In this document: positions 1,659-26,889 of the stretch, one piece after another
Position numbering within the stretch: position 1 is the first letter of the stretch
How the letters are laid out: every line of letters starts with the position of its first letter
Origin: a virus
Lineage: Duplodnaviria > Heunggongvirae > Uroviricota > Caudoviricetes
Virus record (IMG/VR): IMGVR_UViG_2636416110_000005
Reading direction: 5' to 3' (one strand)
Length of the DNA stretch: 43,746 bases
Notes under the pieces: model-generated
The model's input: only the letters and a program-made list of their open reading frames with translations
Databases searched by the model: none
Told to the model about the DNA's origin: nothing
Translations under genes and position numbers: made by a program

Positions 1659-4130
1659 TTAAGAATCAGCCTGACTCGGGATCAGTTTTTGCCAGATAAC
1701 TGAAACGTATTTTGCCTGGTAACGGGCGTCATCAAGTGCATTATGGCGCTCACCTTCGAATGGAATAGCCGTTCTGGCATCGAAGTCTATGGCTTTCCCC
1801 AGCTCAACGATTGTGCGTACATCGCGATCGTTGTAGTAACGCCACGGGCAGGGGATCCCCTGCCGTTCGTATGAACGGCGCAAAATCGTGTTGTCGAAGT
1901 TGGCTCCATTTCCCCAAACCTGAACAAAAAATTCACCGGAGTTTTCGTCGATAAATTCTCGCAATTGTAACAGTGCATCATCTAACGGGATTTCATCGGT
2001 CATAATGGCAGATTGCGCTTCGCGTGATTGCTTAAGCCACCATTTAATGGTGTCCCGATCAATGACTCCGCCAGCAGTTTCCAGATCGATAGTCTTACTA
2101 AATTCCGGTCCCATATCTCCGGTTTGCGGATCGAAAAATATTGCACCTATTGAGATGATCGGGGCATCAGGATTTTTTCCCATGGTTTCAAGGTCGATCA
2201 TTAGATGGTCACACGTCCTGCTGGTGGATGTGATTTCGTGATGACCGTTCACCTTAATTGGGTGATCTGCCGTCTCGCCAGTTTCATTATCGCTATTGTG
2301 ATGCTGATTGCCGCCAGTGTTCTCCTTGTGTGGATGTTCAGCGCCTTCCATTTCCTCCGGATCATCTTCCTGAACTTCAACCTGATACTCTTCATCGAAT
2401 GTTTCTTGGTATGTTGCGTCGCCCATCACCGCGCCACAATCAGGGCAGTTGCCGCCGCCGGTCTGACCGCAGGCGGTGCAGACTTTTTCCACTTCCTGTT
2501 GCGCTACTGGTTCAGGCTGTTTCGTTTCTGGCTCGTTTTGTAACGCATTTGGACTGTTTTGTTCCGCTTTTTGGTAGTTCCGTTCCGATTCATGCTGGTT
2601 CTGGTTCACAGAATCGCGGGTCTGGAGCCCCTTAACCCATTTCGGATCATTCGGGTCACTAATCCCTTCAACAAATTCACCACGTGATGCAGCAAGCAAC
2701 TTATCGGCGTCAGGCTGGCTGATATTGGCTGCCTGCATAATTTTGTTTACTTCGTCAGCGGTAACTTTTATCGGCTCTGGTTGTTCTGAATCTTCAGCGG
2801 TATCTACATTTTGCGGTAAGCCCGTGTATGTGCCATTTTTTCGGGCAAAATATTCTTCTTTTGTGATTTCAGTGGCGCCAGCAGCCAGTGCCTTATCCAG
2901 ACCAGAGAGTTTGTTTGCGCGACCGTATTTTTCTCCGTCCTTATCTGCGAAGAGGAAATAGAACGGCCCCTCACGCTCTACAGATGGTTCAGCTTCCGGC
3001 GCGGTTTCATTTTTTGGGATATCAGATACCTCAGTTTCCACTGCATCAGTTTGTGTTTCTGATGACTGGAGAACATCAACAGTGCCCAGGTCTGTTTCTT
3101 CATTCTCAAACACGCCCTTTGTCGTCAGGTATTCGCAGATATATTTGTTCAGTGCTACGGGATCTTTGTGAATGTCGATCGGACGCTCACGGACAAGGCC
3201 AAAAATAGTTTGGCGGTCGTAGCGAAGGGCATCAGGCTGTTTGCGCATTGATGCCGAGATACGCTTCCAGTCTTCGCGGTCGTTGTCGATAACTTCTTTT
3301 TTTGCCCAGCGATGGATGCTGCCGTCAATGTTTCCGGCATCCACATCACTAGGCCAGAGAGCGTAGGCCAGTTCGTCATCCAGTGTTTTCCATGTCTGCT
3401 TGTATTCGCGATGAATGGCAGCAATGACCGGGCTGATTTTTCCTGTTGAATTTTCAGTGTACTGTTGATTGGCTCTGGCGCGGGCGAGATCAACAACAGA
3501 CGTGTATTTTCCGGTTTCCTTGCGTTCACCTTCGCGACGTTTTTTCCAGATGCGCATCTCTGCCTGAATTTCGGGCCATTTAGCACCAGGAATACATTTA
3601 TGCTTAACCCACCCAATGGCGTGCAACTTAAGCTCCGGATACATGGCGTTAACTTCTGGCATTTTCATCAACGCTTCAACGATATGTCCGTCGAATGTTG
3701 CCATGTCTTCCTGCAACAATTCCTGTGCGCTAATAACCATATCAACGGTGATGTTTTCACATGTGTCGAACTTAACCATGACAGCGTTCTGTACTTCAGG
3801 GGCCAGCTTGTCAAAAGTGACGTTCATCGGATCGGATTCAGTCTCAACCGGGACAAAAGAAGCAGACTCCTCATCCCAGCGGTTTTCCTGCATATATTCA
3901 GCATCCCATGAATCGAGGGCAGGGCGGGGTATGCCAGGTTTATCCTCGCAGACAATAAATTTATAAGCGCAGTCCTGAGCAGCCGGATAATGTTCCAGGA
4001 ATTGCCAGTGAAATTTTGCTCGAGCACGGCGTTCGTCGCCAGCTTCAATGGCTGTGGCTACAGCCACAGCGCCTTCTTCCCTTGTTGCCAGTTCGTCAGG
4101 AATAGCGGCGCAAATAAAGACTTTACTCAT
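1659..4130 (-). CDS. large phage exonuclease with C-terminal DEDDh-type 3'-5' exonuclease domain (intact YdfE-like)
   Basis: ORF 1659..4166 (835 aa); C-terminal region has IDLETMG ... GNGANFDNTILRR ... HNALDDARYQ, resembling DnaQ-like DEDDh motifs. Occupies the slot of the truncated ydfE of K-12 Qin. Start likely ATG 4130 (MSKVF, GAGG 9 nt upstream); 4166 alternative. Confidence 0.8.
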   Translation of the reverse strand: MSKVFICAAIPDELATREEGAVAVATAIEAGDERRARAKFHWQFLEHYPAAQDCAYKFIVCEDKPGIPRPALDSWDAEYMQENRWDEESASFVPVETESDPMNVTFDKLAPEVQNAVMVKFDTCENITVDMVISAQELLQEDMATFDGHIVEALMKMPEVNAMYPELKLHAIGWVKHKCIPGAKWPEIQAEMRIWKKRREGERKETGKYTSVVDLARARANQQYTENSTGKISPVIAAIHREYKQTWKTLDDELAYALWPSDVDAGNIDGSIHRWAKKEVIDNDREDWKRISASMRKQPDALRYDRQTIFGLVRERPIDIHKDPVALNKYICEYLTTKGVFENEETDLGTVDVLQSSETQTDAVETEVSDIPKNETAPEAEPSVEREGPFYFLFADKDGEKYGRANKLSGLDKALAAGATEITKEEYFARKNGTYTGLPQNVDTAEDSEQPEPIKVTADEVNKIMQAANISQPDADKLLAASRGEFVEGISDPNDPKWVKGLQTRDSVNQNQHESERNYQKAEQNSPNALQNEPETKQPEPVAQQEVEKVCTACGQTGGGNCPDCGAVMGDATYQETFDEEYQVEVQEDDPEEMEGAEHPHKENTGGNQHHNSDNETGETADHPIKVNGHHEITSTSRTCDHLMIDLETMGKNPDAPIISIGAIFFDPQTGDMGPEFSKTIDLETAGGVIDRDTIKWWLKQSREAQSAIMTDEIPLDDALLQLREFIDENSGEFFVQVWGNGANFDNTILRRSYERQGIPCPWRYYNDRDVRTIVELGKAIDFDARTAIPFEGERHNALDDARYQAKYVSVIWQKLIPSQADS

Positions 4131-4222
4131 TTGTTTTAACCTCATGACAGATTTAAGGATGAACAAATCCCTGCCATTGCTGGCATATAAGAATGAAACC
4201 GGATATTTATTACGGAACTGTT

Positions 4223-4414
4223 TTAAAGACCTGCCGGGATTTCGATATTATCCTGGTGAATAACTTTATCGACCGGGTAACAGTTACCGGGAATTTTCTG
4301 TTCGGTTGCTGCAGTCATACACTCCTGCATTGTCCTGTGAACACTGACTGCAATATCAACTGGCTCTCCGGAAACAAGAAAAACTGTCAGAACAAGCACA
4401 AATGCTGAATTCAT
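4223..4414 (-). CDS. ydfD: YdfD-like small lysis protein
   Basis: 63-aa product MNSAFVLVLTVFLVSGEPVDIAVSVHRTMQECMTAATEQKIPGNCYPVDKVIHQDNIEIPAGL with N-terminal hydrophobic segment; matches remembered K-12 YdfD; start overlaps dicB stop by 4 nt. Confidence 0.8.
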   Translation of the reverse strand: MNSAFVLVLTVFLVSGEPVDIAVSVHRTMQECMTAATEQKIPGNCYPVDKVIHQDNIEIPAGL

Positions 4415-4599
4415 TGTGCACATCCTTTTGGCATCAGACGTAAACGAGCCAGCATTGAAACAATGCATATTTTATTTAATAGCTCCCGTTCTTGTTTTCT
4501 CTTGTTAATGGCATCTTCAGTAAATACTGGGTTACTGATAGTGACACCAATTTCAAAACAACCTTCAGACGTATTAACGTTTGGTAATAACGTTTTCAT
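4411..4599 (-). CDS. dicB: cell-division inhibitor DicB
   Basis: 62-aa product MKTLLPNVNTSEGCFEIGVTISNPVFTEDAINKRKQERELLNKICIVSMLARLRLMPKGCAQ, internal start of ORF 4411..4704; matches remembered K-12 DicB; lies downstream of DicF. Confidence 0.88.
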   Translation of the reverse strand: MKTLLPNVNTSEGCFEIGVTISNPVFTEDAINKRKQERELLNKICIVSMLARLRLMPKGCAQ

Positions 4600-4764
4600 T
4601 ATCGCGTCCTCAACAATGAATTTTGTGATGCAGTGCCTGGTGCCTCCAGGTGACGTTAACCAGTTAACAATTAACGCCGGATACAGAGAATCCACCCATA
4701 ACACTGTTTTTGGTTTTAACTGTTCCGCGTGCGCTCAGCCGCATTCACCACATCACAAAATTCA

Positions 4765-4812
4765 CTTTAAAAAGGGCGGCAGAGCAGTCACGGAGTAAAA
4801 CTGATACCGCCA
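4765..4812 (-). terminator. Rho-independent terminator forming the DicF 3' end
   Basis: GGCGG ... CCGCC stem within the DicF 3' half followed by TTTTT on the transcribed strand. Confidence 0.6.
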
Positions 4813-4826
4813 AACGTCACCAGAAA
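4774..4826 (-). ncRNA. dicF: DicF small RNA (53 nt)
   Basis: Reverse complement of 4774..4826 reads TTTCTGGTGACGTTTGGCGGTATCAGTTTTACTCCGTGACTGCTCTGCCGCCC, the remembered DicF sequence; followed on the minus strand by a T-run (4765..4773). Confidence 0.88.
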
Positions 4827-5166
4827 ATTGATAACAGAGGGCGTTGCAGCGGGGTTGTCACTTAAGCGTATGGTCAACCTGACAACCCGGTGTCCTCAAC
4901 GGGGAAGGAATAACCCCGCCATACTTACCGCCGCGCCATTTCGCGGGTTGCCACAACCGGAAGCGCACGGTCGACGAAAATTTAACGACAGGCTATCTAT
5001 GAACCAGCTACCTCGCCGTGCGCTTTCGCGTTATGGTCTGACTTTTCAGGGAAATATCCTTTCAGTAAACTGTCAGTTCCGGATGCGCACCCGTGTCCGG
5101 CGCACGCACTCCACCTCACCCGTGGAGAACTCCTTAATTACTAACCTTAGCTTTGTTGATTAGCTA

Positions 5167-10459: not shown

Positions 10460-12080
10460 GCTGTAATGTCCCCTTTGAACCATTCTAAAATGTCCCCAGA
10501 CAATTCTCTGGGGGATTTTTCATGATCAAAGAGACTGTTACGATGAGTCATAAGGAACTCCACCGACTTCAGATTATTCAGGAACAAGCTGCGGCACGCA
10601 TTGGCATTTCTATTCGGCAGGTTAAACGTCTGGTGCAACGGTATAGAAATGAAGGGCCTTCTGGTCTGGTTTCCCACCGACGTGGAAAGCGTCCTAATAA
10701 TTCCTTTTCTACTGAATTCAGAGCAACAGTAATTTCACTCCTCAAAGGCCGTTACGCTGATTTTGGACCTACGTTTGCGTGCGAAAAATTGCGCGAGATA
10801 CACGGTTTATCTTTATCCGTTGAAACTCTCAGAAAGTGGATGATAGAAGAGGGGTTATGGCGTGAACGCCGTCGTAAAATTGCCCGTATATATCAACGCC
10901 GCATGCGACGACCATCTTACGGTGAACTGATCCAGATTGATGGCTCACCTCATGACTGGTTTGAAAATCGAGGCCCCAGATGTACACTGATCGTTTTCAT
11001 TGATGATGCCACCAGTGCGTTGATGGCGTTGCGTTTTGTGCCTGCTGAAACAACCCGGGCTTACATGGAAACCCTCCGGGGTTACCTTAATGATCATGGC
11101 GTACCGCTCGCTCTCTACTCTGATAGACACAGTATATTCAGGGTAAATAACCCAGAGCGGGAAGGTGAGCTGACCCAGTTCACTCGTGCGATAAAGACAC
11201 TGGGCATCGAGCCAATCCATGCCAACAGCCCGCAGGCAAAAGGGCGGGTAGAGCGCGCCAATCAGACACTACAGGACAGGCTGGTCAAAGAAATGCGGCT
11301 TCAGAATATCAGTGATATTGAAACAGCAAATGCATGGTTGCCGACCTTTATTGAAGCCTATAACAACCGGTTCGCTACGTCGCCTCGTACTACTGATAAT
11401 GCTCATCTTGATGTGCACCATTCTGAAGAGGAACTGGGTTATATCTTCAGCCTACAGGCGAAGCGCGTTCTGTCTAAAAATCTCACTTTCCAGTACAAAA
11501 GCAGTGCGTTTCAGGTACGCAGTGAGGGCCGGGGATATCGACTTAGGCATTCGGTTGTTACTGTATGCGAGAACTTTGACGGTGAAATTAACGTTCTGTA
11601 TGACGGGAAAGCGCTGGGCTGGGAAAAGTATGTTGATGGCCCGGAGCCTATACCACTGGATGATGAAAAGAGTGTCCATGAACGAGTGGATAATGCCCGT
11701 ATTGATTTACGCTCAAAATACTATGTTAAACCTAAAGCTGACCATCCCTGGCTTACGCGCCGAACGCAAAGTCATCAGCAAGTTAAGCCCCCGAAGTTAC
11801 CTAAAAAGAAGCCTGATCCCGATAAAAAAGATTGAAACCAAGATCGATTCGGTTGAGTGCATATCCATTCATAGGGTAGATTCTTAAGTCGCGTTTCTGG
11901 TGTTCATTTTCGGGTGGTTTGTTACTTGTTTTACCGGGGATATGCCAGAAACGCGCTGAGTCAGTCTGGGCGGTGCGCGTAATGAGGCGTTATGGTAAAT
12001 AGCCTATGCTAATGTCCGCTAAGAGCAAGAAGCGGAAGTTGGCAGTTTTGTGGACTGTCCCCACAAAAGTGACTACAGAA
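10460..12080 (+). mobile_element. ISNCY-like insertion sequence (boundaries approximate)
   Basis: Transposase ORF flanked by repeated TGTCCCC-containing motifs (10465..10473, 10488..10496, about 12048..12056); terminal inverted repeats could not be defined by eye. Confidence 0.35.
10522..11835 (+). CDS. DDE transposase, ISNCY-like family
   Basis: 437-aa ORF with N-terminal HTH-like segment and integrase-core-like region (IDGSPHDWF ... DDATS ... lysine-rich C-terminus); family from memory, not a search. Confidence 0.75.
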   Translation: MIKETVTMSHKELHRLQIIQEQAAARIGISIRQVKRLVQRYRNEGPSGLVSHRRGKRPNNSFSTEFRATVISLLKGRYADFGPTFACEKLREIHGLSLSVETLRKWMIEEGLWRERRRKIARIYQRRMRRPSYGELIQIDGSPHDWFENRGPRCTLIVFIDDATSALMALRFVPAETTRAYMETLRGYLNDHGVPLALYSDRHSIFRVNNPEREGELTQFTRAIKTLGIEPIHANSPQAKGRVERANQTLQDRLVKEMRLQNISDIETANAWLPTFIEAYNNRFATSPRTTDNAHLDVHHSEEELGYIFSLQAKRVLSKNLTFQYKSSAFQVRSEGRGYRLRHSVVTVCENFDGEINVLYDGKALGWEKYVDGPEPIPLDDEKSVHERVDNARIDLRSKYYVKPKADHPWLTRRTQSHQQVKPPKLPKKKPDPDKKD

Positions 12081-12271
12081 ATAGTTGCAATTCATAATTG
12101 ATCATGGGTTGTCAGTTAAACTCGTGGCGATTTAAATAGACTAATTGGGAGTGCGTCCATTACTTATATCTTGTAATGTTAACTATCAGAAATGATACAA
12201 AGATAATATGTCTTTAAAGAAAAGGCTGATGGCGAAAAGTGGCCCGATGAGGGCCACAATACGGCTGTCAC

Positions 12272-12604
12272 TTAGACGTAAATATCAATGGTGCCAGCGG
12301 TATTTGTATCGTCTTTTTTCTCTTCTTTTTTATCAGGCTGAACTGTCGCGTCTTCATTCTTTTTCTCTGCCTGCTGCCTTAACAACTGCTCCAGTTGAGC
12401 CCAGAGGCTTTCAATTTGCTTCTGTACCAATGCAGCCATTTCTTTTTTCTGCTGTGTCGTCATCCCCTCTTCCGATGAGATTTTCCCAAGCTTTTCAGTC
12501 AGCACCTGAATTTGTCTTGTGATTTTGGCTATTTCTGATGTTCCTTCCGGGGCGGAGTTGTTTGAAATAACGGTTGAGGTATTTCCCTGAATTGTGACAG
12601 ACAT
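12272..12604 (-). CDS. flxA: FlxA-like protein
   Basis: 110-aa ORF MSVTIQGNTSTVISNNSAPEGTSEIAKITRQIQVLTEKLGK...; matches remembered K-12 FlxA; AGGAG RBS. Confidence 0.85.
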   Translation of the reverse strand: MSVTIQGNTSTVISNNSAPEGTSEIAKITRQIQVLTEKLGKISSEEGMTTQQKKEMAALVQKQIESLWAQLEQLLRQQAEKKNEDATVQPDKKEEKKDDTNTAGTIDIYV

Positions 12605-12627
12605 AGATTTCTCCTTTTAAAAAAGCA

Positions 12628-12654
12628 CTATCGGCATGCACAAAAAAATCTTTA
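12628..12654 (-). promoter_or_regulatory. sigma-28 (FliA) type promoter upstream of flxA
   Basis: On the minus strand TAAAGATT-N11-GCCGATAG about 25 nt upstream of the flxA ATG; consensus is TAAAGTTT-N11-GCCGATAA. Confidence 0.7.
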
Positions 12655-12806
12655 ATCGTATTTCTTGTGTCATTAATTGTTTGATGTTCAGATTGTTTTC
12701 CTCGCGGGCTGGCGCGCCTCAGAAAGTAAAGCTTGTTGACAGGGGTAAACGTTCGGCAATAATTTTCTGCCGCATGCGGGTGTTGCATAAAACGTGTTAC
12801 GTTCCT

Positions 12807-13112
12807 TTATCGACAGGTCAGGTCACCGCTCACCCGCCGACGAGAAAGCAACACTGACATGCTAAAGCAAAAAATAGATGAATAAGTTGAGTTGTGCATA
12901 TGTAGCCTGACCGTCACAAAGTATATGGTGTCTGTACCAGTAAGATGATGGCCGGACTCTTTAAAAACGAGCTGACCTGCACAATACAGGATGGACTTAG
13001 CAATGGCTGCTCCTGGCACAAAGCGGACAGTGATCACCGTTCTTACGACTACTTTCTGACTTCCTTCGTGACTTGCCCTAAGCATGTTGTAGTGCGATAC
13101 TTGTAATGACAT
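12807..13112 (-). CDS. ydfV: YdfV-like hypothetical protein
   Basis: 101-aa ORF, same length and position as K-12 ydfV; putative start codon lies inside the relO repeats, so coding status is uncertain. Confidence 0.35.
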   Translation of the reverse strand: MSLQVSHYNMLRASHEGSQKVVVRTVITVRFVPGAAIAKSILYCAGQLVFKESGHHLTGTDTIYFVTVRLHMHNSTYSSIFCFSMSVLLSRRRVSGDLTCR

Positions 13113-13124
13113 TTGTAATTACAA
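13101..13124 (+). promoter_or_regulatory. relBE operator (relO-like repeats)
   Basis: Tandem TTGTAATGACAT / TTGTAATTACAA just upstream of relB RBS AGAGG. Confidence 0.7.
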
Positions 13125-13136
13125 GAGGTGTAAGAC

Positions 13137-13376
13137 ATGGGTAGCATTAACCTGCGTATTGACGATGAACTTAAAGCGCGTTCTTACGCCGCGCTTGAAA
13201 AAATGGGTGTAACTCCTTCTGAAGCGCTTCGTCTCATGCTCGAGTATATCGCTGACAATGAACGCTTGCCGTTCAAACAGACACTCCTGAGTGATGAAGA
13301 TGCTGAACTTGTGGAGATAGTGAAAGAACGGCTTCGTAATCCTAAGCCAGTACGTGTGACGCTGGATGAACTCTGA
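13137..13376 (+). CDS. relB: RelB antitoxin
   Basis: 79-aa ORF MGSINLRIDDELKARSYAALEKMGVTPSEALRLMLEYIADNERLPF...; matches remembered RelB. Confidence 0.9.
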   Translation: MGSINLRIDDELKARSYAALEKMGVTPSEALRLMLEYIADNERLPFKQTLLSDEDAELVEIVKERLRNPKPVRVTLDEL

Positions 13377-13663
13377 TGGCGTATTTTCTGGATTTTGACG
13401 AGCGGGCACTAAAGGAATGGCGAAAGCTGGGCTCGACGGTACGTGAACAGTTGAAAAAGAAGCTGGTTGAAGTACTTGAGTCACCCCGGATTGAAGCAAA
13501 CAAGCTCCGTGGTATGCCTGATTGTTACAAGATTAAGCTCCGGTCTTCAGGCTATCGCCTTGTATACCAGGTTATAGACGAGAAAGTTGTCGTTTTCGTG
13601 ATTTCTGTTGGGAAAAGAGAACGCTCGGAAGTATATAGCGAGGCGGTCAAACGCATTCTCTGA
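13376..13663 (+). CDS. relE: RelE mRNA interferase toxin
   Basis: 95-aa ORF MAYFLDFDERALKEWRKLGSTVREQLKKKLVEVLESPRIEANKLRGMPDCYKIKLRSSGYRLVYQ...; start overlaps relB stop. Confidence 0.9.
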   Translation: MAYFLDFDERALKEWRKLGSTVREQLKKKLVEVLESPRIEANKLRGMPDCYKIKLRSSGYRLVYQVIDEKVVVFVISVGKRERSEVYSEAVKRIL

Positions 13664-13734
13664 ACCAAAGCATGACATCTCTGTTTCGCACCGAAGGTGA
13701 CACTTCTGCTTTGCGTTGACAGGAGAAGCAGGCT

Positions 13735-13890
13735 ATGAAGCAGCAAAAGGCGATGTTAATCGCCCTGATCGTCATCTGTTTAACCGTCATAGTGACGGCA
13801 CTGGTAACGAGGAAAGACCTCTGCGAGGTACGAATCCGAACCGGCCAGACGGAGGTCGCTGTCTTCACAGCTTACGAACCTGAGGAGTAA
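13735..13890 (+). CDS. hokD: Hok-family membrane toxin HokD (RelF)
   Basis: Read by hand (below ORF-track cutoff): MKQQKAMLIALIVICLTVIVTALVTRKDLCEVRIRTGQTEVAVFTAYEPEE (51 aa), downstream of relE. Confidence 0.85.
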   Translation: MKQQKAMLIALIVICLTVIVTALVTRKDLCEVRIRTGQTEVAVFTAYEPEE

Positions 13891-13958
13891 GAGACCCGGC
13901 GGGGGAGAAATCCCTCGCCACCTCTGATGTGGCAGGCATCCTCAACGCACCCGCACTT

Positions 13959-13985
13959 AACCCGCTTCGGCGGGTTTTTGTTTTT
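13959..13985 (+). terminator. Rho-independent terminator after hokD
   Basis: CCCGC-TTCG-GCGGG hairpin followed by TTTTTGTTTTT. Confidence 0.7.
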
Positions 13986-14106
13986 ATTTTCAACGCGTTT
14001 GAAGTTCTGGACGGTGCCGGAATAGAATCAAAAATACTTAAGTAGCGCGCAGGGATAAGAGGGATGGTCCCTTAAAGGGGAGAGCTAATTATCCGGAAGG
14101 ATTCTG

Positions 14107-14358
14107 ATGATGAACATCGAAGAACTGCGTAAAATTTTTTGTGAAGATGGCCTCTATGCTGTGTGCGTTGAAAATGGAAATCTTGTTAGTCATTACCGCA
14201 TTATGTGTTTGCGAAAGAATGGGGCTGCGTTAATTAATTTTGTGGATGCTCGGGTCACGGACGGATTTATCTTGCGCGAAGGTGAGTTTGTCACTTCATT
14301 ACAGGCATTGAAAGAGATCGGAATAAAAGCTGGCTTTTCTGCTTTTTCAGGAGAATAA
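14107..14358 (+). CDS. rem: Rem-like protein
   Basis: 83-aa ORF MMNIEELRKIFCEDGLYAVCVENGNLVSHYRIMCLRKNGAALINFVDARV...; matches remembered K-12 Rem. Confidence 0.8.
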   Translation: MMNIEELRKIFCEDGLYAVCVENGNLVSHYRIMCLRKNGAALINFVDARVTDGFILREGEFVTSLQALKEIGIKAGFSAFSGE

Positions 14359-14424
14359 ACTCATCTACAATCTTGCGCGGGGCTGAACTCCCGCTGAGTA
14401 ACACCGTGCCACCGGAGAAAACCG

Positions 14425-14703
14425 ATGGCACGCAACGCAAAATATTACAATTCTGATAATTCGCCCGTTCTTGCCTGCACGCACGGGCGGTATTCTCACG
14501 CATTCAAGTCTGAATGGTTCCAGCACCCTCCATGCACTGCAGAACAGGCCGAATGGCTGATTCATTCTTACCGCAGGCGCGGGTTCGAGGTTAAGAAAGC
14601 TCTCAGTCTCGACTATCGGCACTGGATAATCTCTGTCAGGCTGCCTTATTCCGAACGCCCACCACGTGCGTCCCGCACTTTCCAGCAACGGATCTGGAGG
14701 TAA
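14425..14703 (+). CDS. hypothetical protein (92 aa)
   Basis: ORF whose stop TAA (14701..14703) immediately precedes the GTG start of ydfU, with GGAGG inside its 3' end serving as the ydfU SD. Confidence 0.5.
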   Translation: MARNAKYYNSDNSPVLACTHGRYSHAFKSEWFQHPPCTAEQAEWLIHSYRRRGFEVKKALSLDYRHWIISVRLPYSERPPRASRTFQQRIWR

Positions 14704-14704
14704 C

Positions 14705-15754
14705 GTGCGGGTATTACTTAGACCTGTTCTGGTGCCTGAGCTTGGGCTGGTGGTCCTTAAGCCGGGCCGTGAATCCATACAGATATTTCATAATCCTCGA
14801 GTGCTGGTGGAACCGGAACCAAAAAGCATGCGTAATCTGCCATCCGGAGTCGTTCCTGCCGTTCGCCAGCCGCTGGCGGAAGACAAAACATTGCTGCCGT
14901 TTTTTAGTAACGAACGGGTGATTCGTGCTGCTGGCGGCGTTGGCGCATTGTCCGACTGGCTATTACGTCATGTTACATCCTGCCAGTGGCCTAATGGCGA
15001 TTACCATCACACTGAAACAGTCATTCACCGTTATGGTACCGGCGCAATGGTGTTGTGCTGGCACTGCGACAACCAACTGCGTGACCAGACATCGGAATCA
15101 CTGGAGCTGCTTGCTCAACAAAATCTGACAGCATGGGTGATTGACGTCATCCGTCACGCAATAAGCGGTACGCAGGAGCGGGAATTATCTTTGGCTGAAT
15201 TATCCTGGTGGGCGGTCTGCAATCAGGTGGTGGATGCACTACCTGAGGCTGTATCGCGTCGTTCGCTGGGATTACCAGCGGAAAAAATCTGCTCGGTGTA
15301 CCGCGAAAGCGACATCGTACCGGGAGAGCAGACCGCCACCAGCATATTGAAACAACGCACAAAAAATCTTGCACCGTTGCCTTACGCCCACCAGCAACAA
15401 AAATCACCACAGGAAAAGACGGTGGTAAGCATCACCGTTGATCCAGAGTCTCCGGAATCTTTCATGAAGCTGCCTAAACGTCGCCGCTGGGTTAAGGAGA
15501 AATACACACGTTGGGTTAAGACACAGCCGTGTGCTTGCTGCGGTATGCCAGCCGACGATCCGCATCATCTGATTGGTCACGGGCAGGGCGGAATGGGAAC
15601 AAAAGCACATGATCTCTTTGTGTTGCCTTTGTGCAGAAAGCATCACAACGAGCTGCATACGGATACAGTGGCATTTGAAGATAAGTATGGCTCCCAACTG
15701 GAGCTGATATTTCGTTTTATCGATCGCGCGCTGGCAATTGGCGTACTGGCGTAA
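14705..15754 (+). CDS. ydfU: YdfU-like DUF968 protein with C-terminal Cys/His (HNH-like) motif
   Basis: 349-aa product from GTG 14705 with SD GGAGG 7 nt upstream; C-terminus CACCGMPADDPHHLIGHGQGGMGTKAHDLFVLPLCRKHHNELH. Confidence 0.75.
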   Translation: MRVLLRPVLVPELGLVVLKPGRESIQIFHNPRVLVEPEPKSMRNLPSGVVPAVRQPLAEDKTLLPFFSNERVIRAAGGVGALSDWLLRHVTSCQWPNGDYHHTETVIHRYGTGAMVLCWHCDNQLRDQTSESLELLAQQNLTAWVIDVIRHAISGTQERELSLAELSWWAVCNQVVDALPEAVSRRSLGLPAEKICSVYRESDIVPGEQTATSILKQRTKNLAPLPYAHQQQKSPQEKTVVSITVDPESPESFMKLPKRRRWVKEKYTRWVKTQPCACCGMPADDPHHLIGHGQGGMGTKAHDLFVLPLCRKHHNELHTDTVAFEDKYGSQLELIFRFIDRALAIGVLA

Positions 15755-15767
15755 GTGGAGAACGAGC

Positions 15768-16520
15768 ATGAACCTTGAAGCCTTACCAAAATATTACTCC
15801 CCAAAATCTCCAAAATTGAGCGATGACGCTCCAGCGACAGGCACCGGTTGTTTAACAATTACGGATGTAATGGCAGCGCAGGGGATGGTGCAGTCGAAAG
15901 CACCACTTGGGTTGGCCTTATTTCTGGCAAAAGTTGGTGTTCAGGACCCTCAGTTTGCGATTGAAGGCCTGCTAAATTACGCGATGGCACTGGATAACCC
16001 GACATTGAACAAATTGAGTGAAGAAATCCGGTTACAGATTATTCCTTACCTCGTGAGTTTTGCCTTTGCTGATTACTCCAGGTCTGCGGCAAGTAAGGCT
16101 CGCTGTGAGCATTGTTCAGGTACGGGATTTTATAATGTATTGCGCGAAGTGGTGAAACACTACAGACGCGGGGAATCTGTAATCAAGGAAGAATGGGTGA
16201 AGGAACTATGTCAGCATTGCCATGGTAAGGGCGAAGCCAGCACAGCGTGCAGAGGGTGTAAGGGTAAAGGGATTGTTCTGGATGAAAAAAGAACCCGGTT
16301 TCATGGCGTACCGGTATATAAGATTTGTGGGCGTTGTAATGGAAACCGGTTTAGTCGTTTACCGACCACGCTGGCACGACGTCATGTCCAGAAGCTGGTA
16401 CCAGACCTGACCGATTATCAGTGGTATAAGGGGTATGCGGACGTCATTGGTAAACTGGTAACAAAGTGCTGGCAGGAAGAAGCATACGCGGAAGCGCAAT
16501 TGAGGAAGGTGACGAGATAA
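15768..16520 (+). CDS. quuQ: late-gene antiterminator, Q-like (QuuQ family)
   Basis: 250-aa product from ATG 15768 (SD GTGGAG); several CxxC pairs (CEHCSGTG, CQHCHGKG, CRGCKGKG, CGRCNG); directly upstream of late promoter/lysis region. Confidence 0.8.
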   Translation: MNLEALPKYYSPKSPKLSDDAPATGTGCLTITDVMAAQGMVQSKAPLGLALFLAKVGVQDPQFAIEGLLNYAMALDNPTLNKLSEEIRLQIIPYLVSFAFADYSRSAASKARCEHCSGTGFYNVLREVVKHYRRGESVIKEEWVKELCQHCHGKGEASTACRGCKGKGIVLDEKRTRFHGVPVYKICGRCNGNRFSRLPTTLARRHVQKLVPDLTDYQWYKGYADVIGKLVTKCWQEEAYAEAQLRKVTR

Positions 16521-16551
16521 ATGATTTTTGCTGAAGATGGCGACATGATGT

Positions 16552-16580
16552 TTGCATTTTTCAAAAAATATGGATAAAAT
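16552..16580 (+). promoter_or_regulatory. candidate late promoter (PR'-like) downstream of Q
   Basis: TTGCAT (16552..16557), 17-nt spacer, TAAAAT (16575..16580). Confidence 0.5.
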
Positions 16581-16625
16581 TTTTTCAACGATGGGTTTTG
16601 TATACCCGACGTTAAGAAAAAGTAG

Positions 16626-16656
16626 AAAACCCGCTGATGAGCGGGTTTTGTGCTTT
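16626..16656 (+). terminator. Rho-independent terminator (tR'-like) about 40-70 nt downstream of candidate late promoter
   Basis: ACCCGC-TGATGA-GCGGGT hairpin followed by TTTTGTGCTTT. Confidence 0.65.
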
Positions 16657-16941
16657 AAATGGGGCAATGGTAATGTTGAATCTCATCCCGGGACTCATGT
16701 CTGTTAACTTATTATTTAGCTGGTGACTTGGTTATTTGCCTGATGTTTAAAATGTTTTCTTCCAGTACAATGTCCCTAAACACAATGAGTCTGCTTATTA
16801 TATTATTAGCAGAGCTATTACGGCCAAAGTACAGCATAAGCTTTTAAAGCCAATCAACCAGTCATCAAGACAGACGGGGTTATTCATAAAAACTCTCCAT
16901 GTGTGATCCGATGGGGCCTGAAATTAAAGCTTTAATATAGC

Positions 16942-17154
16942 TCATGAAAGGTAAACATTGGCAGCTGAAGGGCCACGCAGACCATTTATCCGGCAAAATT
17001 CCACGCGTAATCCGGTGGTAATTTCTTCTGCATCGCGGAGATTGAGCGCTGAAACATGAAGCTGGACATCGATACGACCATCGGATGGGGTGATAAGACC
17101 CTTGCCGCTTTTGCCGTCAAAGGTTTTGACAATTCCTGTCATTTTACGGGACAA
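16942..17154 (-). CDS. cspF: cold-shock-family protein CspF
   Basis: 70-aa [73 protein letters not shown]. Confidence 0.88.
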
Positions 17155-17454
17155 AAAAATTCCTTAATACTGATAACTTGGCGCACTATACACACGTTCC
17201 TGAAGAAAGCTATAGTTTTTTGATGGGGTTGAAGATGGCTGGATGTCTAAAATAAACATTGCTTCATATGTTCAACTATGCGTTAATGATTGCGTCGGTT
17301 TGAAGAACAGACGATATACGAAGTAGTTTACTAAAGCAGTTCTCATTTCAGGTGTTATTCACTTATTCCTTCTTTGAGTCTCTCCAATTAAGTACGAAGT
17401 CGTTTCTGTTATGCAAACCATTTATGCCGAAAGGCTCAAGTTAAGGAATGTAGA

Positions 17455-17670
17455 ATGTCAAATAAAATGACTGGTTTAGTAAAATGGTTTAACGCTGATA
17501 AAGGTTTCGGCTTTATTTCTCCTGTTGATGGTAGTAAAGATGTGTTTGTGCATTTTTCTGCGATTCAGAATGATAATTATCGAACCTTATTTGAAGGTCA
17601 AAAGGTTACCTTCTCTATAGAGAGTGGTGCTAAAGGTCCTGCAGCAGCAAATGTCATCATTACTGATTAA
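17455..17670 (+). CDS. cspB: cold-shock protein CspB
   Basis: 71-aa [74 protein letters not shown]; divergent from cspF with about 300-nt spacer. Confidence 0.88.
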
Positions 17671-17952
17671 AATTCATCGCTCGTCTGTATACGATAACGA
17701 AGAAGGCTGATGCCTGAGTAGAGATACGGACAGAGTAGTGAATATTGGATCTCTTTAATAAAAAGTAAGGAGGTCCAATACATGAAACAATGGCTAGCAT
17801 ATTTGGCAAAATCTTAATCAGGAAAAGTATGCTAACCATTGTGGTGAAGTGCAGGTTTGCTGCATGAATAGTTTTACAGCAGAAGCTAACTGCTGGCATG
17901 GCAAAACAAAGTGCGTAAGTGGATGACTCCCACAAAAAGCACCACAATCTCA

Positions 17953-17976
17953 AACCCGCTCAGGCGGGTTTTTTAT
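17953..17976 (+). terminator. Rho-independent terminator about 280 nt downstream of cspB
   Basis: ACCCGC-TCAG-GCGGGT hairpin followed by TTTTTTATT. Confidence 0.7.
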
Positions 17977-18033
17977 TATCTGCTTTAAATATATTATTAA
18001 AATATAAAAAATACTTGTTACTAATAAAATCAA

Positions 18034-18204
18034 TCAGGCTACAGCTTTAAGATTTGTCTGGAATACTTTGTTGCAATGAGGGCAGATCAAAAGGGCACCT
18101 TTTTGTACTCTTGAAAAACTGTGTTCTGACTCTTGGGTGCAGTTTGGGCAGGAACATTTAACGAGATAATTACGGCGTGATTTTGAGTTTTTACGTTCTG
18201 ACAT
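18034..18204 (-). CDS. small zinc-ribbon protein (56 aa)
   Basis: MSERKNSKSRRNYLVKCSCPNCTQESEHSFSRVQKGALLICPHCNKVFQTNLKAVA (two CxxC pairs); start ATG 18204 with AGGAAAAG RBS; internal start of ORF 18034..18255. Confidence 0.5.
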   Translation of the reverse strand: MSERKNSKSRRNYLVKCSCPNCTQESEHSFSRVQKGALLICPHCNKVFQTNLKAVA

Positions 18205-18423
18205 AGGCTTTTCCTGTATAAATGGCCGTATACAGTACACTAAATATGAAAACATTTCTCGTATTATTATTTTATATATGACTTTCTTTCAAAATAATTA
18301 CCCACATTTTTAATGTGTATGTTTTTTTAGCGCCGTTGAGAACAACGTGTGCTGTCAAAACTACCCCGTAGACTCCGATCTTTTCAAACATATTGCACCA
18401 TCCGTGTACATCGGGGTGAGGAT

Positions 18424-18639
18424 ATGAAATCAATGGATAAGTTAACAACAGGTGTTGCCTATGGCACATCGGCGGGTAATGCTGGTTTCTGGGCATTGCA
18501 GTTACTCGATAAAGTAACTCCGTCACAGTGGGCTGCAATCGGTGTGCTGGGTAGCCTGGTTTTTGGCCTGCTGACGTATCTGACAAATCTTTATTTCAAG
18601 ATTAAAGAAGACAGGCGTAAGGCTGCGAGAGGAGAGTAA
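18424..18639 (+). CDS. essQ: holin (class with dual-start MKSM motif)
   Basis: 71-aa product [71 protein letters not shown]; transmembrane segment; first gene of lysis cassette. Confidence 0.85.
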
Positions 18640-18643
18640 TCCA

Positions 18644-18951
18644 ATGACTCAAGACTATGAACTGGTTGTGAAAGGAGTCCGTAATTTTGAGAATAAAGTT
18701 ACGGTAACTGTAGCCTTACAGGACAAAGAACGCTTTGACGGTGAAATTTTTGACCTGGATGTCGCCATGGACCGTGTTGAAGGAGCTGCGCTGGAGTTTT
18801 ATGAGGCAGCAGCCAGAAGGAGCGTCCGGCAAGTCTTCCTGGAAGTAGCAGAAAAATTGTCAGAAAAAGTTGAGTCTTATCTGCAGCATCAGTACTCCTT
18901 TAAGATTGAAAATCCTGCCAATAAGCACGAGCGTCCTCATCATAAATATCT

Positions 18952-18955
<4 letters not shown>
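18644..18955 (+). CDS. ydfR: YdfR-like protein
   Basis: 103-aa ORF between holin and endolysin; matches remembered K-12 YdfR length and context. Confidence 0.75.
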
Positions 18956-19979
<1,024 letters not shown>

Positions 19980-20341
19980 GGTAATATTAAATCGGAACAT
20001 TTACATCGCGGAATGTAAAATTTAAATAAAAAGGACTCTTCCATGAGCCAAAATTCCTGAAATCTTAAGGGTAAGATAAAAGGTCTTAATCAGAATGACA
20101 CGTTTTATTAATAAATAAAGCTATTCTTTCATTGCTGTGTTTTTCTTTACAAAAGTAATCCTTGCTATGGGTGGTTAATCATGCGTTAATGGTGTTCTGG
20201 TTTGTTACAAATTTATCTGAAGCAGTCATTGTTATAATTTTATTATTTGTACCTCTTGAGATTTCCTTGTTGGTTTTTCTCTCTGATATTTTTTTTCGGA
20301 CCATTCTGCCCAAGGGCTAATTTCTTCAAAAGGTAATAATT

Positions 20342-20554
20342 ATGTCTAACAAAATGACTGGTTTAGTGAAATGGTTTAACCCTGAAAAAGGTTTTGGTTT
20401 CATCACGCCGAAAGATGGCAGCAAAGATGTGTTTGTCCATTTCTCAGCAATTCAGAGCAACGATTTCAAAACATTAACTGAGAATCAGGAAGTTGAATTT
20501 GGTATTGAGAACGGACCTAAAGGTCCTGCCGCTGTTCATGTAGTGGCGCTTTGA
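20342..20554 (+). CDS. cspI: cold-shock protein CspI
   Basis: 70-aa [73 protein letters not shown]. Confidence 0.88.
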
Positions 20555-20758
20555 GGTAGACAATATTACAAACCATATTCACTTTAGATGCCCGTGTTGT
20601 CATGGTTCCCAGTATAGAACATCATCTTTTGATGTTTCTGACATGAATCCTTTCGGGGCAAAATGTATCTTTTGTAAATCAATGATGATTACATTTGATA
20701 ATATTTCACAATACTTAAATGCCAGCCGTCTGTCGTTGGATTTAAAAAAGTGAAAATG

Positions 20759-20782
20759 AAGGCTCCTTCGGGAGCTTTTTTG
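20759..20782 (+). terminator. Rho-independent terminator
   Basis: AAGGCTCC-TTCG-GGAGCTTTTTT. Confidence 0.7.
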
Positions 20783-20825
20783 CTTGGTGTCTATTCGATG
20801 GATACTCACATACTACGGTAACATC

Positions 20826-21056
20826 ATGAAAAAAATCATAGTTTTTTTTAACTCTGAACCAGCAGTGGTAGTGCCAGCGATGACTGGAGTTAACACCATC
20901 ATGCGTGAATATCCAAATGGCGAAAAAACACACCTTACTGTAATGGCCGCAGGGTTTCCATCTCTGACCGGAGATCATAAAGTCATTTATGTAGCCGCGG
21001 ATCGACATGTTACTTCAGAAGAAATTCTGGAAGCAGCAATAAGGCTCTTGAGTTGA
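20826..21056 (+). CDS. hypothetical protein (76 aa)
   Basis: MKKIIVFFNSEPAVVVPAMTGVNTIMREYPNGEKTHLTVMAAGFPSLTGDHKVIYVAADRHVTSEEILEAAIRLLS; weak RBS; an 88-aa ORF overlaps on the opposite strand, so coding strand is uncertain. Confidence 0.35.
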   Translation: MKKIIVFFNSEPAVVVPAMTGVNTIMREYPNGEKTHLTVMAAGFPSLTGDHKVIYVAADRHVTSEEILEAAIRLLS

Positions 21057-21225
21057 TTTGATGCTATTGCATTGATAATTCAGGAAAATTCTCTTTGTCT
21101 GTTTGTGTAAAATTTAGACTATCGTATGTTGATTATTGCGATGTTTCATCTTATCTTTTACACGTTTGCACCATATAATCGACTTACTGTGTAACTGGAA
21201 AGTCATAACAGACTAAAAGAGGAAA

Positions 21226-21402
21226 TGATGAATATTGAAAACTTAAAAACAAAAGCAGAAGCAGATATTTCTGAATATATAACAAAAAAAATTATTGAAC
21301 TTAAGAAAAAGACCGGGAAAGAAGTTACCAGTATTCAGTTTACCGCACGGGAAAAAATGACGGGTCTTGAAAGCTATGATGTCAAGATTAATTTAATCTG
21401 AT
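21226..21402 (+). CDS. gnsB: Gns-family small protein (GnsB-like)
   Basis: 58-aa product MMNIENLKTKAEADISEYITKKIIELKKKTGKEVTSIQFTAREKMTGLESYDVKINLI read by hand; AGAGGAAATG RBS. Confidence 0.75.
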
Positions 21403-21552
21403 GTATTCAATAATAAAATTTATCCATAAACCTCGTTTTTACGGGGTTTTGTTATATTTGAATGGTTCCGAATATCTAAATCACAATTGTTGATGGTTTT
21501 TATTAAACCAATGCAGTCCGGCTCAGGAGTGAGAGAAGCCGGACGTTATGGT

Positions 21553-21963
21553 TTAGCGTGGTAAGATCTGTGTAGTTTTCTGGATGCTTTCAGTAAATAG
21601 TAATGAATTATCAAAGGTATAGTAATATCTTTTTTGTTCGTGGATATTTGTAACCCACCGAAAAACTCCTGCTTTAGCAAGGTTTCTTCTGTATTCCTGA
21701 AATGTGATCTCTCTGGATTTCAGCTTATTAGAGGTCGTTTCTATAAGATGCCTATCCTTTGAAAATTTGACAGACACAATGTTTTTTAGGCCCTTTAATA
21801 ACACTGTATTATCATTTTTTAATACAATATGAACATTCTCTGTGGCTAAATAGTAAATGTAATGTGAGACATTGTGACGTTTTAGCTCAGAATAAAACCA
21901 TTGATAGTTTAAATCGTTTCGAACTTTATCAAATATTTGTTTAAAAATGACTACCTGATCCAT
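21553..21963 (-). CDS. ydfO: YdfO-like protein
   Basis: ORF 21553..21978; 136-aa product from [24 protein letters not shown]...; size and context fit K-12 YdfO. Confidence 0.65.
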
Positions 21964-22020
21964 AGATAAACCTTCCATGTGATATGAGGGGGCGTAGTCT
22001 GCACGATTATCTAAATTGCT

Positions 22021-22642: not shown

Positions 22643-23162
22643 ATGGAAGTCAACAAAAAGCAGCTGGCTGACATTTTCGGTGCGAGTATCCGTACCATTC
22701 AGAACTGGCAGGAACAGGGAATGCCCGTTCTGCGAGGCGGTGGCAAGGGTAATGAGGTGCTTTATGACTCTGCCGCCGTTATAAGATGGTATGCCGAAAG
22801 GGATGCTGAAATTGAGAACGAAAAGCTGCGCCGGGAAGTTGAAGAACTGCGGCAGGCCAGCGAGACAGATCTCCAGCCAGGGACTATTGAGTACGAACGC
22901 CATCGACTTACGCGTGCGCAGGCCGACGCACAGGAGCTGAAAAATGCCAGAGACTCCGCTGAAGTGGTGGAAACCGCATTCTGTACTTTCGTGCTGTCGC
23001 GGATCGCAGGTGAAATTGCCAGTATTCTCGACGGGATCCCCCTGTCGGTGCAGCGGCGTTTTCCGGAACTGGAAAACCGACATGTTGATTTCCTGAAACG
23101 GGATATCATCAAAGCCATGAACAAAGCAGCCGCGCTGGATGAACTGATACCGGGGTTGCTGA

Positions 23163-23188
<26 letters not shown>
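22643..23188 (+). CDS. nu1: terminase small subunit Nu1
   Basis: 181-aa ORF MEVNKKQLADIFGASIRTIQNWQEQGMPVLRGGGKGNEVLYDSAAV...; lambda Nu1 length and sequence. Confidence 0.95.

Positions 23189-26869
<3,681 letters not shown>

Positions 26870-26889
<20 letters not shown>

Follow-up and report, generated by a model that had tools for sequence, protein, structure and literature searches.

The window, that is, the whole stretch of 43,746 nt that was analysed (IMG/VR virus record IMGVR_UViG_2636416110_000005), is by its sequence a Qin-like lambdoid prophage. Positions 1-25000 were 99.9% identical to phage PhiR42_1 (from ECOR13), and positions 16480-16720 had 99.6% identity with the ydfT (quuQ)-cspF region of Qin, a prophage of E. 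coli K-12; the late region is complete in the window, unlike in the K-12 remnant. An earlier reading, made from the sequence alone (the sequence-only reading), had proposed that a promoter with a short, terminated leader follows the Q-like gene, in the manner of lambda PR'/tR'. The features at the locus and around it are as follows.

15768..16520, plus strand: Q antiterminator gene of the quuQ/ydfT type, 250 aa (Pfam PF03589, E 3.6e-54; DnaJ_CXXCXGXG; PDB 7ubm_Q, E 4.6e-36)
16552..16557, plus strand: putative -35 hexamer TTGCAT of the late promoter (PR'), from sequence; aligned with lambda TTGACT and equal to the annotated phi80 pR' minus_35_signal
16558..16574, plus strand: 17-nt spacer TTTTCAAAAAATATGGA, the position of a candidate Q-binding element (QBE)
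16575..16580, plus strand: putative -10 hexamer TAAAAT, from sequence; 5/6 to consensus, homologous to lambda TAAATT
16587, plus strand: predicted transcription start, by homology to the P22-annotated start
16587..16592, plus strand: predicted sigma70-dependent pause element AACGAT (-10-like, +1 to +6), identical in lambda and P22
16593..16595, plus strand: GGG discriminator-like element (+7 to +9), as GGG at lambda +7-9
16587..16613, plus strand: predicted 5'-terminal stem-loop of the leader RNA, 9 bp, +1 to +27 (folding, -8.2 kcal/mol; family covariation)
16626..16656, plus strand: predicted intrinsic terminator tR' with a 10-bp stem and 4-nt loop (16626-16649) and the U-tract TTTTGTGCTTT (16646-16656)
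18424..19979, plus strand: lysis cassette with phage-21-type holin, YdfR-family protein, lysozyme and Rz-like protein (Pfam; K-12 and PhiR42_1 annotation)
22643..26889, plus strand: first of the head genes, those for terminase Nu1 and A, W and portal B (ORFs; PhiR42_1 annotation)

The Q protein of the window belongs to the Q-lambda family; its match 7ubm_Q is the solved Q-lambda chain. The reading frame was intact and 100% identical to that of relatives. Compared with lambda Q (33-41% identity) and P22 Q, the alignment revealed an insertion of ~40 aa with extra CxxCxGxG and CxxCxGKG zinc-ribbon motifs. This insertion is common to phi80 and most family members, so that the structurally solved lambda Q is a short, minority form. 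The gene immediately upstream of Q encodes YdfU (14666-15754, plus strand; DUF968 with an HNH-like motif). A Providencia phage also has a YdfU-family protein upstream of Q, which suggests a conserved YdfU-Q module. Literature searches for the function of quuQ/ydfT or for a Qin late promoter gave nothing relevant, and a study of Stx pR' regions (PMC6266700) contained nothing on the type of Q found in the window.

The lysis and morphogenesis genes lie downstream of the terminator on the same strand as the promoter, and the lysis cassette would provide the first late genes served by it. Two cold-shock 'moron' genes, cspB and the divergent cspF, form an insertion that separates tR' from the lysis genes. 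cspB is preceded by a cspA-type thermoregulator 5' UTR (17294-17686, plus strand; Rfam RF01766, 158.8 bits) and has its own terminator at 17952-17971.

The Q stop lies at 16520 and the -35 hexamer begins at 16552, which agrees with the proposal of a promoter directly after the Q-like gene. The positions given for this promoter (TTGCAT, 17 nt, TAAAAT) also held, but its description as 'near-consensus' was overstated: the -10 hexamer matches TATAAT at 5/6 positions, whereas the -35 hexamer matches TTGACA at only 3/6. A promoter scanner scored the site 9/12, in an 18-nt register. A consensus scan of positions 12000-22000 found 18 promoter-like sites versus 19.3 +/- 4.6 in shuffled sequences, that is, no excess, and consensus scoring by itself gave no promoter signal beyond chance. 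The combination of a loose promoter, a pause-like hexamer and GG was likewise found 9 times in the window against 9.2 expected. When a terminator within 110 nt was added to this composite, a single site was left, at 16587, compared with 0.07 expected per window; at least one such site occurred in 7 of 100 surrogates. It is therefore homology, not consensus matching, that raises the element above chance.

One open reading frame of 51 aa (16552-16707, plus strand) was rejected as a gene, as its start lies in the -35 hexamer and its frame extends across promoter, pause site and terminator. It is listed as a 'hypothetical protein' in the PhiR42_1 record, very likely as an annotation artefact.

We compared the locus with the late promoters of known phages. 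Lambda PR' reads TTGACT-TATTGAATAAAATTGGG-TAAATT-TGACTC-AACGATGGGTTAATTCG, and the window reads TTGCAT-TTTTCAAAAAATATGGA-TAAAAT-TTTTTC-AACGATGGGTTTTGTAT; both hexamers have a counterpart in lambda, as do the 17-nt spacing and the 6-nt gap, and the hexamers with this spacing also align with PR' of P22 and phi80. The spacers of the window and lambda are identical at 11 of 17 positions by eye. The two systems share the Q protein family, a promoter with a 17-nt spacer directly after Q, an intrinsic terminator ahead of the late genes, and the first nine transcribed bases AACGATGGG (16587-16595), which are exactly those of lambda PR' +1 to +9 and occur only once in the window. They differ in the leader (the 6S RNA of 194 nt in lambda, ~67 nt in the window), in the -35 hexamer (TTGACT against TTGCAT), in the six remaining spacer positions, and in the TTGACT -35-like element beside the lambda pause site, which is not kept in the window.

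In lambda, this -35-like TTGACT adjoins the pause element and is used by sigma region 4 in the Q-loading complex. The homologous position of the window has TTTTTT, a 3/6 match. Across the Q-lambda family, the -35-like element beside the pause site is variable and is thus probably not family-defining. Positions +1 to +9 of lambda consist of a -10-like, sigma70-dependent pause element and a GGG discriminator (PMC5001585), and Q loads at this promoter-proximal pause (PMC9388147). The sequence-only reading had suggested a search for a qut-like site around 16560..16600; such a site is present at 16587-16595, with a candidate QBE placed by its position in the spacer (16558-16574).

The P22 record annotates P late, a qut site across the start, the late-RNA 5' nucleotide and t late. 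Judged by offsets, the annotated P22 start is the first A of AACGAT, to which A16587 would correspond, in line with the start near 16587 that had been proposed. P22 (P late, gene 23, t late) resembles the window in its short leader, with the hairpin foot at +57, and differs in its short, lambda-type Q (207 aa), its lambda-like spacer and a terminator of unrelated sequence. The phi80 record annotates the pR' -35 hexamer TTGCAT, a Q-binding site, the -10 hexamer and the terminator. phi80 (pR', gp17 Q) shares with the window a long-form Q with the zinc-ribbon insertion (~36-40% identical), the identical -35 hexamer, a similar spacer end (CTGGA; ATGGA in the window) and a hairpin foot at +69, and differs in its pause hexamer AACGCT with a 7-nt gap and in the GC-rich first half of its spacer (TCGCGGA). 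Its annotated Q-binding site (spacer positions 2-8) is homologous to 16559-16565 of the window. Among Qin-clade relatives, the spacer pattern TTC(A/G)(A/G)AAA...TGG is conserved.

Closer to the window are Shigella phage SfV, coliphage Ayreon and Stx2c-converting phages, with Q proteins 93-94% identical, the same hexamers, the same AACGATGGG, and a DNA identity of 81-84% over the stretch between the end of Q and the terminator. The SfV and Ayreon records annotate a 'terminator' at the orthologous hairpin. These phages differ from the window in the genes that follow the terminator and in a longer U-tract (7 T). In the Stx2c-converting phage (L003, positions 2501-5156), a lipoprotein-like ORF comes after the cassette, along with a DNA methylase gene and tRNA-Met/tRNA-Arg genes. 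Since such tRNA genes are the usual lead-in to stx, the cassette probably switches stx2c expression there, the stx genes lying beyond the stretch that was examined.

To describe conservation across the family, we collected Q-lambda-family loci (one genome per species, plus phages) and aligned the region after the Q stop. A first scan of viral contigs returned only relatives at least 94% identical, and the diversity came from genome contigs and a tblastn search of phages. By eye, about 70 of 75 loci had the same order: promoter, 5-8-nt gap, -10-like hexamer usually followed by GG(G), short leader and terminator. The cassette was found in Escherichia, Enterobacter, Kosakonia, Mangrovibacter, Xenorhabdus, Photorhabdus, Proteus, Providencia, Morganella, Serratia, Yersinia, Pectobacterium, Erwinia and Edwardsiella, among others in the Enterobacterales set. 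In the pause hexamer, A2 and T6 were invariant in all 59 distinct leaders, A1 was conserved in at least 90% and GGG in at least 70%. A2 and T6 correspond to the positions of a true -10 hexamer that sigma region 2 contacts most specifically. A terminator lay within 110 nt in 65 of 75 loci, with its 3' foot at a median of +64 (range +50 to +104; window, +63). A short terminated leader of ~50-70 nt is thus the family norm, and lambda with its 194 nt is the exception.

Four loci (L102, L145, L164, L171) had no recognisable set of promoter, pause element and terminator after Q, and their cassettes may be degraded or rearranged. Four other loci (L096, L114, L124, L150) are enterobacterial Q cassettes in assemblies labelled as a Veillonella parvula MAG, uncultured Bacteroides and Chryseobacterium sp.; they probably represent contamination or mis-binning.

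A strong terminator had been placed within about 70 nt of the promoter, and the hairpin and U-tract at 16626-16656, with the foot at +63, fit this description. The stem reads AAAACCCGC-TGAT-GAGCGGGTTTT (16626-16649) and is followed by GTGCTTT, giving an interrupted U-tract (UUUUGUGCUUU). On the plus strand, RNA folding of the stem with the U-tail yielded -16.0 kcal/mol, or -22.9 kcal/mol when extended by pairing of the A-tract with the U-tract. The 72-nt leader (16587-16658) folded into two hairpins at -32.8 kcal/mol (z = -7.9; none of 200 shuffles was as stable), which are separated by AAGAAAAAGUAGAAAA, an unpaired, A-rich linker. Among relatives, this linker lacks sequence conservation, and DNA similarity of relatives to the window stops at 16649, the hairpin foot. 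The terminator scanner called the hairpin on the minus strand only, with the tail CTACTTTTTC; it missed the plus strand because its greedy stem consumes the T-run. An A-tract and a T-tract flank the hairpin, which is terminator-like on the minus strand as well. It probably serves both directions, ending the convergent cspF/small-ORF transcript also. A search of Rfam at a permissive threshold found no family for the leader, only a lone sub-threshold match to Pseudomonadales-1 (E 0.35).

The anatomy described by the sequence-only reading is confirmed, and its comparison with lambda PR'/tR' is supported by the Q family, the alignment of the hexamers, the identical AACGATGGG and the terminator. 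Very probably, the locus regulates the late genes of a Qin-like lambdoid prophage and is a homologue of the lambda PR'-qut-tR' cassette. As far as its sequence tells, the element is real but not new: it is an ordinary lambda-type late switch. From homology with lambda, we infer where transcription starts and pauses, that Q binds and that tR' is read through; the analogy is weakened by the weak -35 hexamer, the interrupted U-tract, the lost TTGACT-like element and a QBE assigned by position only. By the mechanism described for Q-lambda (PMC9388147) and for the lambda pause (PMC5001585), sigma70-RNA polymerase would start constitutively at A16587, and sigma region 2 would re-bind AACGAT and GGG, giving a scrunched pause at about +13 to +17. 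Without Q, the polymerase would escape and terminate at 16626-16656, releasing an RNA of ~65-70 nt. Q expressed from 15768-16520 would bind its element in the promoter spacer, and Q and NusA would load on the paused complex and form a nozzle at the RNA exit channel. The modified polymerase would then pass tR' and later terminators, including the cspB terminator near 17952-17971, and read-through would reach the lysis genes (18424-19979) and then the head and tail genes past 22.6 kb.

The 5' stem-loop of the leader has an outer helix (+1 to +4 and +24 to +27) and an inner one (+6 to +10 and +18 to +22), and it contains the transcribed pause element. The predicted partner of the first 4-5 nt, which are transcribed from the sigma pause element, is a segment 15-25 nt further on. 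It was seen in the window and in leaders L001-L004 and L087-L172. A plain MAFFT alignment of the leaders was ungapped and left the 3' arms unaligned, so covariation was tested both without an alignment and on a structure-fitted alignment (A3). The two arms occur in compensatory classes: AACG/CGTT, AATG/CATT, AACA/TGTT, AACGG/CCGTT and CATG/CATG. Leaders with the 5' tetramers listed below had the exact complement downstream at these rates.

AACG: CGTT downstream in 94% of 34 leaders
AACA: TGTT downstream in 8/8 leaders
AATG: CATT downstream in 5/7 leaders
CATG: CATG downstream in 1/1 leader

The off-diagonal values of this tetramer matrix were low. Leaders matched the complement of their own 5' class in 48 of 63 cases versus 22.8 +/- 2.8 when the 5' classes were permuted (0 of 5000 permutations). 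At least 4 of 5 Watson-Crick pairs were formed in 56 of 65 leaders, compared with 36.5 +/- 3.2 (maximum 47) in 2000 permutations, in each of which the 3' arm was re-optimised. Native leaders folded at -5.1 kcal/mol versus -3.5 +/- 0.47 kcal/mol for chimeras that joined 5' and 3' halves of different classes, a comparison at class level (0/300). In A3, pair 3-27 was CG in 40 sequences and UA in 18, and pair 4-26 was GC in 39 sequences and AU in 17. On A3, an N-padded alignment fitted to the structure and made of mutually related sequences, covariation scored 0.412 versus 0.182 +/- 0.017 when shuffled, and at most 0.173 when the partner was slid. The change from G4:C to A4:U is found in two promoter backgrounds, the lambda-like one (L121, L136) and the TTTACT type (L132, L146). 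An AATAGT/AATAAT subgroup pairs in a register shifted by 2 nt.

The sole difference from K-12 Qin within 16480-16720 is at 16596 (+10), where the window has T instead of C. With this T, the 5' stem-loop gains a U-A pair (-8.9 versus -6.5 kcal/mol for the first 30 nt).

No such hairpin was mentioned in the pause papers that were searched for it, PMC5001585 among them; older literature may describe it. We consider it possible, if somewhat doubtful, that the leader is more than a by-product, with an RNA-level role for the covarying 5' stem-loop and perhaps a regulatory one for the ~67-nt RNA too. If so, the stem-loop could shield either the late mRNA or the short RNA against decay that depends on the 5' end, insulate the very close terminator so that its hairpin folds, or act after passage of the 5' end through the Q nozzle.

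Three other explanations were weighed against an active late switch. The hairpin could be a bidirectional terminator for the early-right (Q) operon and the convergent cspF, with promoter hexamers that arose by chance. The scanner call on the minus strand, the convergence of cspF and the small ORF on the hairpin, and the chance frequency of promoter-like and promoter-plus-pause-like combinations would fit this. However, the same order follows Q in SfV, Ayreon, P22, phi80 and many genera that lack cspF; because the cassette is kept there, a bidirectional role adds to the role as tR' and cannot replace it. AACGATGGG is also identical to that of lambda and invariant at both sigma-contact positions; we regard this explanation as extremely improbable. 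A cassette of the PR' type could also be a relic that is now inactive and kept by recent inheritance only, as in K-12 Qin. The K-12 copy, from which the window differs by so little, is located in a cryptic, defective prophage, so that activity in any given host is not guaranteed. Copies at 99% identity or more were present in 1241 genomes, which suggests recent descent over selection. Against this, the Q frame is intact, the complete late region lies downstream of it on the same strand, positions 1-25000 match a deposited phage genome, and all functional positions are intact by the family pattern; we regard an inactive relic as very unlikely.

The third explanation takes an active switch for granted and concerns its product. 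By homology with lambda, the ~67-nt RNA should be made constitutively, and it could be a trans-acting small RNA with a second function in lysogeny, like StxS of Stx1/Stx2a phages, also a short RNA that starts at the late promoter and ends at tR' during lysogeny. StxS, for which the distance from PR' to tR' is 258 nt and RNase E processing yields 74 nt, demonstrates that a by-product of PR'-tR' can turn into an Hfq-dependent regulator (PMC7547250). The leader of the window is highly structured, with the 5' stem-loop, the A-rich linker and a terminator with a U-tail, and 1629 of 5426 complete E. coli genomes (~30%), K-12 included, carry the cassette. But the linker is not conserved among relatives, and homology to StxS was rejected, with no Rfam match and with StxS tied to an unrelated Q family of 144 aa, a clade other than the Q-lambda family of the window (PMC7547250). 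We found no target or Hfq-binding data for the ~67-nt leader RNA, and a trans-acting role appears unlikely.

The late switch itself, the favoured reading, allows the late promoter, start, pause element and tR' of Qin-type prophages to be annotated with confidence; none of these was annotated in the K-12 and PhiR42_1 records that we scanned. By itself, the cassette matters little. The covarying 5' stem-loop, of which the transcribed pause element is a part, provides a simple, testable hypothesis and a modest lead in the best-studied antitermination system.

The 241-nt PR' query matched at two places in each of two phage records, PP925841.1 (HannyBb) and PV340573.1 (PhiR63_1). Of the matches in HannyBb, the best is found ~1.6 kb downstream of Q; the cassette of this phage may be duplicated or displaced.
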